A stretch of 64,000 nucleotides of DNA from Prorocentrum cordatum (GCA_963575745.1 CAUYUJ010000237.1:186001-250000); one strand, 5' to 3'. Positions 15,176 through 20,014 are shown, counted from the first letter of the stretch. The notes: a model not told the origin generated them from the sequence alone. A program made the numbers and translations.

Positions 15176-18100
15176 TCCCAACCATCATGTGACGTTGGGT
15201 CTTCGTTTTGAACAGACGGTCCCCGCGTTCCTCTCTTTCCTCCTCCCCCTCCTCCTCCCTCCCCCCGTCGCCACACCCATGGCGGGACACCCCTCACGCG
15301 TTTCGTGGCCCCATAGGAAGCTCCACCGAAGGCCCCAGTGGCTGCGCCCACATGCGTCCCCCACGCACCCATTTCGGCACACCTCTCACTCGTTTCGTGG
15401 CCCCATGGGGAGCTCCACCGAAGGCCCCAGTGGCTGCGCCCACATGCGTCACCCGCACCATTTCGGCGCACCTCTCACACGTTTCGTCGCCCTTTTTGGG
15501 GGGTTCCACCGAAAGCTTCAGTGCCACCGTCCACATGCGTCCCCCACGCGCCCGTTTCGGCCCACCATTCACGCGCTTCGTGGCCCAATGGGGAGCTCCA
15601 CCGAAGGCCCCAGTGCCACCGTCCTCATGCGTCACCTGCACCATTTCGGCACGCCCCTCACACGTTTCGTCGCCCCTTGGGGAGCTCCACCGAAGGCCCC
15701 AGTGCCACCGTCCACATGCGTCCCACACACACATACACACACACACACACTCACACACACACACACACACACACATCGGCACACCCCTCACACGCTTCGC
15801 GGCCCCATAAGGGAGCTCCACCGAAGGCCCCAGCGGCTGCGCCCACGTGCGTCTCCCACACACCCATTTCGGTGCACCACTCACACGTTTCGTGGGCCCA
15901 TAGGGAGTTCCACCGAAGGCCCCAGTTGCTGCGCCCACATGCGCCCCCCACGCCCATTTCGGCACACCCCTCACACGTTTTGTGGCCCCATAAGGGGCTC
16001 CACCGAAGGCCCCAGTGGCTGCGCCCACATGCGCCCGCACACACACACACACACACACACACACACACACACACACACACACACACACACATACACACAC
16101 ACACACACACATGTCGGCACACCCCTCACACGCTTCGTGGCCCCACAGGGAGCTGCAACGAAGGCCCCAATGGTTGCGCCCACCTGCGACCCCCCACACA
16201 CACCCATTTAGGCACACCCTTCACACGCTTCGTGGCCCCATAGGGAGCTCCACCAGTGGCTGCGCCCACATGCGTCCCCCACACACCCATTTCGGCACAC
16301 CCCTCACACGTTTCGTGGCCTTGCAGGGAGCTTCACCAAAAGGCCCCAGTGGTTGCGCCCACATGCGCCCTTCCCCCCCCCCCCCACACACACACACACA
16401 CATTTCGGCACACCCCTCACGCGTTTCGTGGCCCCATGGGGAGCTCCACCGAAGGCCCCAGTGACTGCGCCCACATGTTCCCCCACACACACACACACAC
16501 ACACACACACACACACACACACACACACACACACACACACACACGCACACGCACACGCACACACACACAGAGGCACACACACACACACCCAAGCACGCAC
16601 GCACGCACGCGCGCACGCACGCACGCACGCACACACACACACACACACATTTCGGCACATACCCCACACGCTTCGTGGCCCAATAGGGAGTGTCACCGAA
16701 GGCCCCAGTGGTTGCGCCCACATGCGCTTCCCACACACCCATGCCGGCACACTCCTCACACGTTTCGTGGCCCCATAGGGAGCTCCACCGAAGGCCCCAG
16801 TGCCACCGTCCACATGCCCCCCCCCCGCACACACACACACACACACACACACACGCACACGCACACACACACACACACACACACACGCACACACACACAA
16901 ACAAACACAAACACACACACACACACACACACATTTCGGCACACCCCTCACACGCGGCGTGGCCCCATAGGGAGCTCCACCGAAGGCCCCAGTGGCTGTG
17001 CCCACAGGCGTCCCCAACACGCACATTTCGGCACACCCCTCACACGTCCCGTAGCCCTATGGGGCGCTTCATCGAAGGCCCCAGTGATTGCGCCCACGTG
17101 ATTCCCCCACACGCCCATTTCGGCACACCCCTCGCACGGTTCGTGGCCCCCTAGGGAGTTTCACCAAAGGCCCCAGTGGTTGCGCCCACATGATTCCCCC
17201 CACACCCATGTCGGCACGCCCCCCCACGCGTTTCGTTGCCCCATAGGGAGTTCCACCGAAGGCCCCAGTGCCACCGTCCACATGTGTCCACACACACACA
17301 CACACGCGCGCACGCACACACACACACACACACACACACCCGCGCGCGCGCGCGCGCACACACACACACACACACACACACACACACACACACACACACA
17401 CACACACACGCACACGCACACGCACACGCACACGCACACGCACACGCACACGCACACGCACGCACACGCACACGCACACGCACACGCACACGCACACGCA
17501 CACGCACACGCACACGCACGCGCACGCGCACGCGCACGCGCACGCGCACGCGCACGCGCACGCGCACGCGCAGCACACGCACCACGCACACGCACACGCA
17601 CACGCACACGCACACGCGCACGCGCACGCGCACGCACGCACACACACACACACACACACACACACACACACACACACCACACACACACACACACACACGC
17701 ACACGCACACGCACACGCACACGACACACGCACACGCACACGCACACACACGCACACGCACACGCACACGCACGCACACGCACACGCACACGCACGCACA
17801 CGCACACACACACACACACACACACACACACGCACGCACGCACGCACGCACGCACGCACGCACGTACGCACGCACGCACACACACACACACAGTTCGGCA
17901 CACCCCTCACTCGCTTCGTGGCCTCATAAGGAGCCCCACCGAAGGCCCAAGTGCCACAGTCCGCATGCGCCCCCCCCACACACACACACACACACACACA
18001 CACACACACACACACACACACACACACACACACACACACACACACACACACACACACACACACACACACACGTTTCGGCACACCCCTCACACATTCTGTG

Positions 18101-20014
18101 GCCCCACAGGGAGCTCCACCGAAGGCACCAGTGGCTGCGCCCACATGCGTCTCTCCCACACACACACAGACACAGACACAGACACAGACACAGACACAGA
18201 CACACACACACACACACACACACACACACACACACACACACATTTCGACATCCCCCTCGCACGCTTCGTGGCCCCATAGGGAGCTCCACCGAAGGCACCA
18301 GTGGCTGCGCTCACCTGCGCCCCTCACACACACCCATTTCGGCACACCCCTCACACGTGCCGTGGCCCCATAGGGAGCTCCACCGAAGGCCCCAGTGGCT
18401 GCGCCCACATGCATCCCCCACACACCCATTTCGACATCCCCCTCGCACGCTTCGCAGCCCCATAGGGAGCTCCACCGAAGGCCCCAGTGGCTGCGCCCGC
18501 AGGCGTCACCCACACACCCATTTCGGCACACCCTTCACACATTTCGTGGCCCCATAGAGAGCCCCACCGAAGGCCCAAGTGGTTGTGCCCACAGGCGTCA
18601 CCCACACACACACACACACACACACACACACACACACACCACACACACACACACACACACACACACACATTTCGGCACACCCCTCACACGTTGCGTGGCC
18701 CCATAGGGAGCTCCACCGAAGGCCCCAGTGCCACCGTCCACATGTGTCCACACACACACACACACTTCGGCACACCCCTCACTCGCTTCGTGGCCCCATA
18801 GGGAGCTCCACCGAAGGCCCAAGTGCCACAGTCCGCATGCGCCCCCCCCCCCGCACACCAATTTCGGCACACCCCTCACACGTTCCGTGGCCCCATAGGC
18901 GGCTTTACCGAAGGCCCCAGTGGCTGCGCCCGCATGCGTCCCCCGCACACCCATTTCGGCCTCCTCCTCGCACCTTTCGTGGCCCCATAGGGAGCTCCAC
19001 CGAAGGCCCCAGTGGCTGCGCCCACATGCGTCCCCCACACACCCATTTCGGCACACCTCTCACTCGTTTCGTTGCCCCATGGGGAGCTCCACCGAAGGCC
19101 CCAGCGCCACCGTCCGCATGCGTCCCCCACACACCAATTTCGGCACACCCCTCACTCGCTTCGTGGCCCCATAGGGAGCTCCACCGAAGGCCCCAGTGGC
19201 TGCGCTCACCTGCGTCCCCCACACACCTATTTCGGCACACCCCTCACACGTTTCGTGGCCCCATAGGGAGCTCCACCGAAGGCCCCAGTGGCTGCGCCCA
19301 CATGCGTCCCCCACATACCCATGTCGGCACACCCCTCACACGCTTCGTGGCTCCATAGGAAGCTCCACCAGAGGCCCCAGTGGCTGCGCCCATATGCGTC
19401 CCCCCACACACCCATTTCGGCACACCCCTCACACGTTTCGTGGCCCCATAGGGAGCTCCACCGAAGGCCCCAGTGCGCTCACATGCGCCCCCCCCCACAC
19501 ACACACACAAACACACACACACACAGGCCCTTTTCGACACACACACACACACAGGCCCTTTTCGGCACACCCCTCACACGTTGCGTGGCCCCATAGGGGT
19601 CCACAGGCGCCCCCCGCACACCCATTTCGGCACACCCCTCACACGTGTCGTTGCCCCATTGGGAGCTCCACCGAAGGCCCCAGTGGCTGCGCCCACATGC
19701 GTCCCCCACACACCCATTTCGGCACACCCCTCACACGTTTCGTGGCCCCATAGGGAGCTCCACCGAAGGCCCCAGTGGCTGCGCCCACATGCGTCCCCTA
19801 CACACCCATTTCGGCACACCCCTCACTCGCTTCGTGGCCCCATGGGGACCTCCACCGAAGGCCCCAGTGGCTGCGCTCACATGCGTCCCCCACACACCCA
19901 TTTCGGCACACCTCTCACGTTTTGGGGCCCCACAAGGGGGCGCCCCCGAAGAAAACATTCAAAATTGCCGCACTCACAACTTCATATAATTGGGTCCTTC
20001 GCCAGGCTAATCTT
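15176..20014 (+). mobile_element. Satellite-carrying non-autonomous element, copy 1 (Helentron/Helitron2-like termini)
   Basis: 5' tcccaaccatcatgtgacgttgggtcttcgttttgaacagacgg and 3' actcacaacttcatataattgggtccttcgccaggctaatctt are both shared with 45545-47880 and enclose the 92-bp array. Confidence 0.8.
15280..19950 (+). repeat. 92-bp tandem satellite (about 38 units) with (CA)n/(CACG)n expansions
   Basis: Unit is cccatttcggcacacccctcacacgtttcgtggccccatagggagctccaccgaaggccccagtggctgcgcccacatgcgtcccccacaca. The 92-bp spacing is visible at 19000-19368. Confidence 0.97.

Follow-up and report, generated by a model that had tools for sequence, protein, structure and literature searches.

In the sections of the published accounts considered here, Helitron2 elements carry asymmetric repeats of 8–15 bp located 0–2 bp from the 5′ end and about 20–30 bp from the 3′ end, begin with a 5′ T and form a 5′ hairpin in which the 5′ repeat takes part; non-autonomous Helitron2 copies of Chlamydomonas insert between TTTT and T/C with no target-site duplication (TSD) (PMC3627910). 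The HINE/DINE-1 elements and the oyster Cg_HINE are described as a succession of subTIR, inverted repeat (IR), microsatellite, central repeats and 3′ subTIR, with a TT target, no TSD and a variable number of terminal Ts (PMC4067079, PMC7492417). A 3′ hairpin is attributed to both Helitron1 and Helitron2. Helitron1 is further described by a 5′ TC, a 3′ CTRR, an insertion between A and T and a hairpin of 16–20 nt about 11 nt from the 3′ end (PMC4067079). In the same accounts, an AP endonuclease in the autonomous partner is the defining feature of Helentrons, and a Helitron2-like RepHel element without AP endonuclease has been reported in the dinoflagellate Symbiodinium microadriaticum (Heringer & Kuhn 2021, PMC8788227).

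Here, we analysed a stretch of 64 kb (hereafter, the window) that contains two arrays of a 90–92-bp satellite. The two arrays probably represent a single family of non-autonomous DNA transposons of the Helitron2/Helentron (HINE, DINE-1-like) structural type, with one copy each. The comparisons support a small non-coding element that would carry the satellite as cargo and whose build resembles that of the rolling-circle Helitron2/Helentron hitch-hikers of flies, mites and oysters, its own host being a marine protist and probably a dinoflagellate.

Ends and body plan of the two copies

Copy 1 (15176..20011, + strand, 4.8 kb) is delimited by the ends that it shares with copy 2 (45545..47876, + strand, 2332 bp), whose own boundaries are fixed by empty sites. 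In the 64-kb window, matches to the 5′ end pattern are confined to 15176 and 45545, and those to the 3′ end pattern to 19972-20011 and 47837-47876 (two matches each versus 0.00 expected), which bears out the original prediction that both arrays are bounded by the same non-satellite ends. Homology between the copies covers 15176-15258 and 45545-45623 on the left (84.5%) and 19960-20018 and 47825-47884 on the right (81.7%). It stops at the ends and does not reach into the outer flanks, which are unrelated, so that the continuing homology expected of a segmental duplication was looked for and not found in this comparison. Copy 1 is the older and more decayed of the two.

From left to right, each copy is organised as a 5′ T, a 9-bp inverted repeat folding back on a GTTGGG 8–11 nt downstream and a conserved block of ∼50 bp, then a pyrimidine-rich microsatellite, the central 90–92-bp array and a conserved right block of ∼60 bp, in which the 9-mer recurs as its reverse complement at a distance of 17 nt from the end ..GCCAGGCTAAT. 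The 5′ repeat CCCAACCAT lies at 15177..15185 in copy 1 (+ strand, 1 nt from the 5′ end, the T being at 15176) and at 45546..45554 in copy 2 (+ strand), and is found 1 nt from the 5′ end in all five copies when the 5′ ends of the window and of metagenome contigs are aligned. Its reverse complement before the 3′ end was recognised from the outset, and is indeed exact in copy 2 (ATGGTTGGG, 47851..47859, + strand, 17 nt from the 3′ end) and degenerate in copy 1 (ATAATTGGG, 19986..19994, + strand, 7/9 matches). Of the three occurrences of ATGGTTGGG in the window, two are minus-strand matches, one at each 5′ end, and the third is the plus-strand match at 47851-47859; 0.38 occurrences are expected, and 0/100 shuffles reached three. 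The two copies thereby show the short asymmetric inverted repeats of Helitron2 and HINE elements, near-terminal at the 5′ end (0–4 nt from it in those elements) and subterminal at the 3′ end (about 20–60 nt from it in those elements).

The fold-back partner GTTGGG of the 5′ repeat is located at 15194..15199 in copy 1 and at 45563..45568 in copy 2 (both + strand), where a TGGT just upstream extends the pairing to an 8-bp bulged stem. The CCCAAC/GTTGGG arms are invariant in five of five copies and involve the 5′ repeat, as does the 5′ hairpin of Helitron2 and HINE elements. The proposed hairpin therefore stands as regards its arms, but its predicted folding energies of −4.6 and −5.4 kcal/mol (z −0.7 and −1.8) are weak. 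At the other end, a weak 3′ hairpin had been announced, and folding of the last 30 nt gives values no better than shuffles (−0.6 and −1.5 kcal/mol, z +0.7 and −0.2). The 3′ hairpin or palindrome of Helitron2 and HINE elements has no counterpart here beyond GCCAGGC (3+1+3, 7 nt; 20001..20007 in copy 1 and 47866..47872 in copy 2, both + strand), the only stretch downstream of the 3′ repeat that resembles a palindrome. The original prediction placed the 3′ end at ..CTAAT(T)CTT: CTAAT is most likely terminal, the element ending in ..GCCAGGCTAAT at 20011 and 47876, but the (T)CTT that follows most likely belongs to the T-rich target and not to the element.

Inside these ends, the left conserved block of copy 1 is separated from the array by a polypyrimidine (CCT-like) microsatellite (15229..15270, + strand); the array consists of 92-bp tandem repeats (15274..19951, + strand) with at least 34 monomer cores and (CA)n expansions within monomers. 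In copy 2, the microsatellite block (45599..45808, + strand) combines (CCT)-like repeats, (ATC)n at 45641-45741 and (TCCTC)n at 45742-45808, and the 90-bp tandem repeats (45826..47815, + strand) comprise 20 monomer cores and a degenerate last unit. TRF assigns a period of 92 to 15274-19951 and of 90 to 45826-47754. A 40-nt monomer core (at most three mismatches) matches 40 times, always on the + strand (24 in array 1 and 16 in array 2), and nowhere else in the 64 kb at that threshold. The layout of left block, microsatellite, central repeats and right block, which is that of DINE-1 and Cg_HINE, is also present on two metagenome contigs (L002 and L003). Among the copies seen, arrays range from about 5 to more than 34 units, and the satellite has the same orientation relative to the ends in every case. 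For comparison, two other arrays of the window (102 bp at 40.6-41.95 kb and 152 bp at 29.5-30.1 kb) have flanks without comparable ends, as judged by eye only.

The arrays differ in monomer variants, and 53 of the 56 monomers have their nearest neighbour in the same array; much of the array history is thus local. In addition, copy 2 contains recent internal duplications with a period of 120 bp and 100% identity (46165-46403).

Insertion site, recurrence and abundance

The insertion of copy 2 could be examined through a host repeat that it splits into a left part (45387..45544, + strand, delimited by alignment to the empty site) and a right part (47877..48388, + strand), the latter being itself high-copy in two public sequencing runs, X1 and X2. 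A paralogous copy of this repeat without the element is present in the window (852..1492, − strand), with the junction between 1334 and 1331. It matches the left flank at 45387-45544 ∼ 1492-1334 (77%, E 1.5e-29) and the right flank at 47882-48388 ∼ 1331-852 (79%, E 1e-128). A second empty site is provided by one contig of run X3, which joins ..ATCCTTCCTCCATGT straight to 47876 onward. This contig was judged from 30 loose letters and alignment coordinates, and the window paralog is only 77–79% identical. The empty sequence ..CCATGT.TT.CTTTTT.. corresponds to ..CCATAT.T[TCCCAACC...GGCTAAT]T.CTTTTT.. in the filled site. Copy 2 is a discrete insertion of 2.3 kb, placed in T-rich DNA with a T on either side and without TSD, on the thin support of two empty sites. 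The original prediction of junctions free of TSD and poly-A holds at both of them.

Other copies point to the same target. The base preceding the 5′ T is a T in four of five copies, and the consensus of loose ends beyond the 3′ end begins with Ts in public runs. The T-rich, T^T target without TSD of Helitron2 and HINE elements is thus that of copy 2, copy 1 being the exception with its C^C flanks. Affiliation to canonical Helitrons (Helitron1) was considered and rejected: the copies do start with a 5′ TC and have CTAA ahead of the final T, but the T^T target departs from A^T, and a 3′ hairpin is absent.

These features also bear on whether the copies are MITEs of a cut-and-paste (DDE, TIR) superfamily that contain tandem repeats. 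A small element without coding capacity, with tandem repeats in its interior and short inverted repeats close to each end, would fit this description, and elements of this kind were formerly filed as MITEs in the account considered here (PMC3879986). Against this, the inverted repeats are asymmetric (1 nt versus 17 nt from the ends, the 17 nt being part of the insertion), TIRs at the very ends and a fixed TSD are lacking at the empty sites, and the satellite keeps the same orientation relative to the ends in all copies seen, which makes a MITE extremely unlikely.

Beyond the window, the 5′ end was found on four metagenome contigs (L001–L004). Since L001 and L004 are 99.8% alike, these represent three loci. 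In the alignment of five 5′ ends, identity begins exactly at T+CCCAACC, and the copies of the window and metagenomes provide four independent 5′ flanks. L003 runs from the 5′ end through 14 monomers into the beginning of the 3′ block; the 3′ end was sought and not found in L001, L002 and L004. Neither end pattern had any match in a collection of viral contigs (0 for the 3′ end, 0 for the 5′ end) or in a collection of genome contigs (0 and 0).

The 701-bp stretch spanning the 3′ end is matched by 3161 contigs in X1 and 1928 in X2. Summed contig depth, which is not to be equated with copy number in either run, amounts to 49.6k (X1) and 108k (X2) at 47844-47867, and drops to 268 and 558, respectively, at 47892-47915. 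At least 78 X2 contigs diverge right after the 3′ end (47877), with an agreement of 0.35. The element thus recurs amid many unrelated flanks and is very abundant in the two related organisms of X1 and X2. When runs were searched with 47700-48400, shares reached at most 0.09, and no RNA run was among the matches listed.

Could fixed junctions alone explain this pattern, the array owing its dispersal to segmental duplication, to ectopic recombination or to circular DNA that reintegrated? Only two complete copies lie in the window, and the predominance of nearest neighbours within the same array, together with the array-specific monomer variants, would agree with a non-transposon origin. Yet homology ends at the same bases in all copies, the empty site is precise, the flanks are many (including those 78 or more discordant X2 contigs), and random breakage would not be expected to leave the structured ends of a known type of transposon. 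We therefore regard such an origin as very unlikely.

Among the loose ends listed, the 3′ end is mostly joined to satellite: at the inner edge, 50 X1 and 67+27 X2 contigs continue into the satellite and 5 X2 contigs continue into other sequence. The 5′ end occurs once without satellite (L001/L004). It had been put forward that termini independent of the arrays would speak against the element. They do occur, once at the 5′ end and in at least 5 X2 contigs at the 3′ end, and we read them as indicating that the ends belong to the element and that the satellite is a variable cargo; ends without satellite are no demonstration that the element is immobile.

Search for a transposase and proposed mechanism

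No Pfam domain of a RepHel, helicase or transposase was detected in 252 ORFs of the window (46 of at least 200 aa, then 128 + 78 of at least 90 aa). This set was assembled after removing 128 of the 409 ORFs of at least 90 aa for low sequence entropy, as well as 33 ORFs inside the two elements. The only two Pfam matches (Ctr and SR-25) were low-complexity or sub-threshold. Similarly, eight ORFs downstream of the short array of L002 gave no Pfam match. Over the window, Rfam (gathering thresholds) and ARAGORN returned nothing.

A 236-aa ORF adjoining the 5′ end in L004 was considered as a transposase and rejected, since it behaved as neither an HUH Rep nor a helicase in any test. It has no Pfam match, an Atlas search was without result, and its 12 homologues are of similar length, none being longer. 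Its AlphaFold2 model is confident (pLDDT 85.6), with no Foldseek hit in the PDB at an E value of 0.001 or better and only weak RNase III-like rows with VIA-align (Z 5.5, 3.9 and 3.5). This ORF carries a spliced-leader relic and is more likely a retrocopied host gene. In the window itself, the spliced-leader 21-mer has no match at up to three mismatches, and the 16-mer has two matches at three mismatches, which is not above chance (8/100 shuffles); the window itself thus offers no direct sign of its taxon.

The absence of RepHel among the 252 ORFs and the missing 3′ hairpin may also be taken as signs that the element is moved via single-stranded DNA by a non-RepHel enzyme, either a Replitron-type Y1 Rep or an undescribed HUH or other nuclease, its likeness to Helitron2 being convergent. 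In the account considered here, Replitrons use a Y1 Rep transposase, carry short direct repeats that are terminal or nearly so, and for the most part lack TSDs (PMC10288648), and a short direct repeat GTTGGGTYCT is present near both ends of the two copies (15194/19990 and 45563/47854). But this repeat is a simple product of the 5′ fold-back and the 3′ inverted repeat, as in DINE-1, and the outermost bases, TCCCAA and GCTAAT, do not form direct repeats. Moreover, asymmetric inverted repeats, insertion at T^T and a body made of microsatellite and central repeats are all missing from that account of Replitrons (PMC10288648). A non-RepHel enzyme thus appears unlikely, and an element of Helitron2/Helentron type remains our preferred reading.

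As no RepHel gene was found, we infer the rolling-circle mechanism from structure only. A RepHel transposase (HUH nuclease and Pif1-like helicase) encoded elsewhere in the genome would nick the ends, and the unit would transpose in a single-stranded form by a copy-and-paste, rolling-circle route, with the 5′ hairpin and the base pairing between the inverted repeats acting as start and stop signals. Transposition would seed satellite arrays around the genome, each of which would then grow, shrink and homogenise locally via unequal exchange or slippage. The original prediction of a rolling-circle element that spreads and amplifies the satellite agrees with the discrete insertion and the structured ends as far as spreading is concerned; its mechanism derives from structure, and a lengthening of the arrays by transposition, as opposed to local unequal exchange, is conjectural.

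Annotation of repeats is poor in dinoflagellates and other marine protists, and the 3′ hairpin on which standard Helitron finders rely is missing from this family. A defined, very abundant family of rolling-circle type that carries a satellite would offer a concrete annotation model (ends, target and body plan), would account for the occurrence of one satellite in short arrays at scattered places, and would extend outside animals a link between transposons and satellites that is known from flies and bivalves. It would also make it possible to test which signals at the ends are truly required by a Helitron2-type transposase. The general picture is unchanged, as satellites carried by Helentron-type elements are already known in animals and a Helitron2-like element in Symbiodinium.

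Comparison with known systems

The absence of an earlier description, which the original prediction had suggested, holds for the present lineage only, since satellite-bearing elements of Helentron type are well described in animals. The text of the HELIANO paper contains no occurrence of dinoflagellate, alveolate, protist or tandem-repeat words. By description, and not by sequence or ends, the RepHel element of S. microadriaticum would be the kind of autonomous partner to be expected (PMC8788227). A bolder reading, in which the family is a distinct, dinoflagellate-specific and hairpin-less variant of Helitron2/Helentron, partnered by a basal Symbiodinium Helitron2-like RepHel, present in thousands of copies and acting as a main vehicle that seeds satellite arrays throughout such huge, repeat-rich genomes, is rather doubtful. 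More generally, the anatomy fits the published Helitron2 and HINE/DINE-1 architecture at every point except a real 3′ hairpin.

As far as the published descriptions considered here go, the element resembles the non-autonomous Helitron2 elements of Chlamydomonas (Helitron-1N1_CRe; Bao & Jurka 2013, PMC3627910) by its asymmetric inverted repeats (9 bp, 1 and 17 nt from the ends), its 5′ T, its 5′ hairpin using the 5′ repeat, and its integration downstream of a T run and ahead of T/C, with no TSD. It differs by the lack of a hairpin downstream of the 3′ repeat and by a body made of a microsatellite and a long satellite array. The distance of 17 nt between the 3′ repeat and the end is shorter than the 20–30 nt quoted for Helitron2 and the 38–60 nt quoted for HINE. 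As described in the corresponding account, HINE/DINE-1 elements (Thomas et al. 2014, PMC4067079) likewise have subTIRs, the 5′ one of which encloses the 5′ half of an inverted repeat, and a body composed of a conserved block, a microsatellite and central tandem repeats. They share the T-rich or TT target that is left unchanged and the variable number of terminal Ts, and their boundaries were also proven via paralogous empty sites. In contrast, their subTIRs measure 12–15 bp versus 9 bp here, their 5–10-bp stem-loop near the 3′ end is absent here, and their hosts are animals and not a protist.

The comparison with Cg_HINE of the Pacific oyster (Vojvoda Zeljko et al. 2020, PMC7492417), again as described in the sections considered, shows unrelated sequences, arrays that here reach up to 4.7 kb and no folding 3′ palindrome in the present element. 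Both nevertheless have satellite-like arrays as central repeats, a left flank made of subTIR, IR (1–12 bp apart) and microsatellite, and a right flank of about 60 bp with the 3′ subTIR. Both also have a TT target without TSD, insertions into other repeats and an array length that varies between copies.

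Common ends around two satellite arrays

As the original prediction had proposed, the same non-satellite ends surround both satellite arrays of the window, which have periods of 92 (15274-19951) and 90 (45826-47754; Tandem Repeats Finder). The 40-nt monomer core (at most 3 mismatches) matches the window 40 times, always on the plus strand; the first array accounts for 24 of these matches, the second for 16 and the rest of the window for none. The 5'-end pattern is found only at 15176 and 45545 and the 3'-end pattern only at 19972-20011 and 47837-47876 (2 matches versus 0.00 expected in each case), which delimits copy 1 (15176-20011) and copy 2 (45545-47876). 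The predicted inverted recurrence of a 5' 9-mer near the 3' end also holds. Indeed, ATGGTTGGG matches the window three times versus 0.38 expected (at least three in 0 of 100 shuffles): on the minus strand (i.e. as CCCAACCAT) at both 5' ends, 15177 and 45546, and on the plus strand near the 3' end of copy 2 (47851-47859). At the corresponding place of copy 1, the degenerate ATAATTGGG occupies 19986-19994.

The window looks like gene-free repeat DNA throughout its 64 kb (∼57% G+C), with no tRNA or Rfam family. Other satellite-like arrays, at 40619-41952, 29494-30141, 4422-4982 and 52673-53010 (periods of 102, 152, 40-125 and 152 bp, respectively), displayed no element-like ends on inspection by eye. 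Kilobase-scale trinucleotide arrays belonging to a single motif class are arranged head-to-head at 22624-24556, where a near-palindromic junction at ∼22957 marks the change from (ACT)n to (AGT)n, and at 42178-44526, where (AGT)n (42178-43112) is followed by an 80-bp spacer and (ACT)n (43195-44526). These large inverted microsatellite pairs, lying between copies 1 and 2, have cruciform potential. A (GTA)n array of 4.1 kb covers 56178-60317.

Insertion sites and dispersal

Comparison of the window with itself (blastn) aligned the two copies over a 5' block (15176-15258 with 45545-45623, 84.5%), a 3' block (19960-20018 with 47825-47884, 81.7%) and otherwise only the satellite. Homology past the ends, which would have signalled a segmental duplication, was limited to low-complexity matches in the outer flanks. 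The left flank of copy 2 (45387-45544) matches 1492-1334 (minus strand, 77%, E 1.5e-29) and its right flank (47882-48388) matches 1331-852 (minus strand, 79%, E 1e-128). Since both flanks match one uninterrupted stretch, a paralogous empty site is present near the window start, and copy 2 is, judging from these alignments, an insertion into one member of a different repeat family. This host repeat (852-1492, minus strand; 45387-45544 and 47877-48388) reaches summed depths from thousands to 26k in the public sequencing runs X1 and X2 and opens with a palindromic GCATGG..CCATGC recurring at 49875-49917 and 1460-1492.

A second empty site comes from a contig of run X3 that joins ..ATCCTTCCTCCATGT straight to 47876 onward and has a left-flank motif in common with the window paralog. 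The empty site reads CCATGT.TT.CTTTTT and the filled one CCATAT.T[TCCCAACC...GGCTAAT]T.CTTTTT, from which it follows that the element, 45545-47876, was inserted between T and T without duplication. The (T)CTT initially assigned to the element's end therefore belongs to target DNA, and the proposed absence of target-site duplication (TSD) is borne out at both empty sites of copy 2. This absence, together with the asymmetric repeats, rules out a cut-and-paste MITE; a retroposon is unsupported, as the T run already exists in the empty site and no TSD is found. Copy 1 is flanked by C and C and is the more decayed of the two.

Contigs (Logan) of four runs (X1, X2, X3 and X7) were placed on 47700-48400 (701 bases) at ≥80% likeness, with 3161 contigs in X1 and 1928 in X2, which derive from two organisms. 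Summed depth, which does not equate to copy number, amounts to 49.6k (X1) and 108k (X2) over the 3' block (47844-47867) and drops to 268 and 558 at 47892-47915, a step that coincides with the element end. Among the best-supported loose ends, at least 78 X2 and at least 3 X7 contigs diverge from the window right after 47877; the X2 sequences open with Ts and their consensus agreement of just 0.35 implies many different flanks. Segmental duplication or recombination is ruled out by these many flanks, the exact common ends and the empty sites. On the inner side of the 3' block, the best-supported contigs running into satellite monomer number at least 50 in X1 (agreement 0.77) and at least 67 and 27 in X2 (0.77 and 0.59), while at least 5 in X2 run into non-satellite sequence.

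Further copies were sought by one 5'-end scan of metagenome contigs, which returned four contigs representing three loci (L001 and L004 are 99.8% identical). In the five aligned 5' ends, identity starts precisely at T+CCCAACC and the preceding base is T in four. One locus (L003) contains the 5' end, a microsatellite, 14 monomer cores and the start of the 3' block at the contig's end. In another (L002), 5 monomer cores come after the 5' end and then give way to unrelated DNA. L001/L004 share this 5' end and the pyrimidine tract but lack satellite, and a 236-codon ORF follows in its place. The ends mostly adjoin satellite (X1/X2 inner edges, L002, L003), L001/L004 and at least five X2 contigs being exceptions. 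Upstream sequences are unlike, save 45 bp common to L002 and L004. These 45 bp resemble the end of a ∼158-bp unit of the same contigs (L002:383-700, in tandem, and 1105-1148; L004, in script orientation, 3-114 and 331-371), which also ends in ..TTCTTT and whose ..GGGGGCA.AG...TTCTTT end directly abuts the element's 5' T in both. This junction could be an insertion (hotspot) in the repeat; alternatively, two related elements may be joined here head to tail. Altogether, the element is an abundant, dispersed and discrete insertion with Helitron2-type ends and target.

Mobilization, array growth and host

We favor, with good though not full confidence, a non-autonomous Helitron2/Helentron-type family carrying satellite. 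As initially proposed, the ends match the published anatomy and target of such elements, bar the 3' hairpin and a 17-nt spacing. A RepHel transposase (HUH Rep nuclease plus Pif1-like helicase) would act in trans, and the element would move as a single strand by copy-and-paste, rolling-circle transposition. No Rep, helicase or transposase domain, nor any other credible Pfam domain, was detected in 252 window ORFs of at least 90 aa (46 + 128 + 78), with 128 low-entropy ORFs and 33 ORFs within the elements left out ahead of the scans. Since a Helitron2-like RepHel element is reported for Symbiodinium microadriaticum (PMC8788227), this lineage could plausibly supply such a partner. It is unlikely that a different single-strand enzyme, e.g. 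a Replitron-type Y1 Rep, moves the element: a direct repeat GTTGGGTYCT near both ends would agree with Replitron criteria (PMC10288648), but it is a consequence of the 5' fold-back and the inverted repeat.

Under Helitron2/Helentron-type mobilization, transposition would scatter the arrays, much of whose growth would be local. Copy 1 holds at least 34 monomers and copy 2 holds 20, against 14 in L003 and 5 in L002. For 53 of 56 monomers the nearest neighbour is a member of the same array, mean monomer identity is 0.85-0.87 inside arrays versus 0.84 between the two window arrays, and a 120-bp duplication within copy 2 shows 100% identity. In copy 1 (16484-18242), the CACACA part of the monomer is expanded to (CA)n tracts of up to ∼780 bp, a microsatellite growing within a satellite monomer.

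The runs and metagenome contigs with the element are marine or estuarine. The L001/L004 contigs match the element ends and satellite of the window at 82-97% identity. Some 53 nt before the ATG of their ORF lies an 18/21 match to the dinoflagellate spliced leader, a motif that co-occurs with mention of dinoflagellates in 28 papers. Such a relic ahead of an ORF is a known signature of retrocopied dinoflagellate mRNA and points to a dinoflagellate origin of these contigs; a motif search found none in the 64-kb window, for which a dinoflagellate source is likely on indirect evidence. The ORF (236 aa; L004:1107-1814 on the minus strand of the locus as stored, and likewise in L001) has 12 metagenome homologues of 143-275 aa with a conserved HxxEMHGDxFEI motif and no Pfam domain. 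Its AlphaFold2 model is helical and confident, but the structural matches are RNase III-like and no better than weak, a subunit of a trypanosome editing complex reaching Z 5.5. The ORF probably represents a host gene, from an undescribed family, that was retrocopied; its candidacy as the transposase was rejected on the lack of Pfam match and these weak matches.

Comparison with Helitron2 and HINE elements

Helitron2 has asymmetric inverted repeats of 8-15 bp, placed 0-2 bp from the 5' end and about 20-30 bp from the 3' end, together with a 5' T and a hairpin built on the 5' repeat, and its non-autonomous copies in Chlamydomonas insert between TTTT and T/C without TSD (Bao & Jurka 2013, PMC3627910). 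Helentron-associated interspersed elements (HINE/DINE-1), whose boundaries were proved through paralogous empty sites, have a 5' subterminal inverted repeat (subTIR) with a further inverted repeat nested inside it, a body comprising a microsatellite plus central tandem repeats, a variable number of terminal Ts and TT targets (Thomas et al. 2014, PMC4067079). In oyster Cg_HINEs, the central repeats are satellite-like arrays, the left flank comprises the subTIR, an inverted repeat 1-12 bp away and a microsatellite, and the 60-bp right flank holds the 3' subTIR (Vojvoda Zeljko et al. 2020, PMC7492417). The element shows all of these features except in two respects: its 3' repeat lies just 17 nt from the end, and the sequence in between does not fold. 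The 3' hairpin, anticipated as weak, is missing: fold prediction for the 3' ends of the two window copies gives -0.6 and -1.5 kcal/mol, with z-scores of +0.7 and -0.2, and the only motif there is GCCAGGC. The proposed 5' hairpin is retained in sequence, its arms being conserved among the five 5' ends, but has little predicted stability (z -0.7 and -1.8).

A literature search for Helentrons in dinoflagellates yielded only PMC8788227, and the titles and abstracts of the papers listed describe no satellite-carrying non-autonomous Helitron in this group. The element's novelty thus stands for dinoflagellates but not for the phenomenon. The element matters mainly for dinoflagellate repeat annotation and for its missing 3' hairpin; satellite arrays as central repeats of Helentron/Helitron2-type non-autonomous elements are well described from Drosophila, mites, mosquitoes and bivalves.
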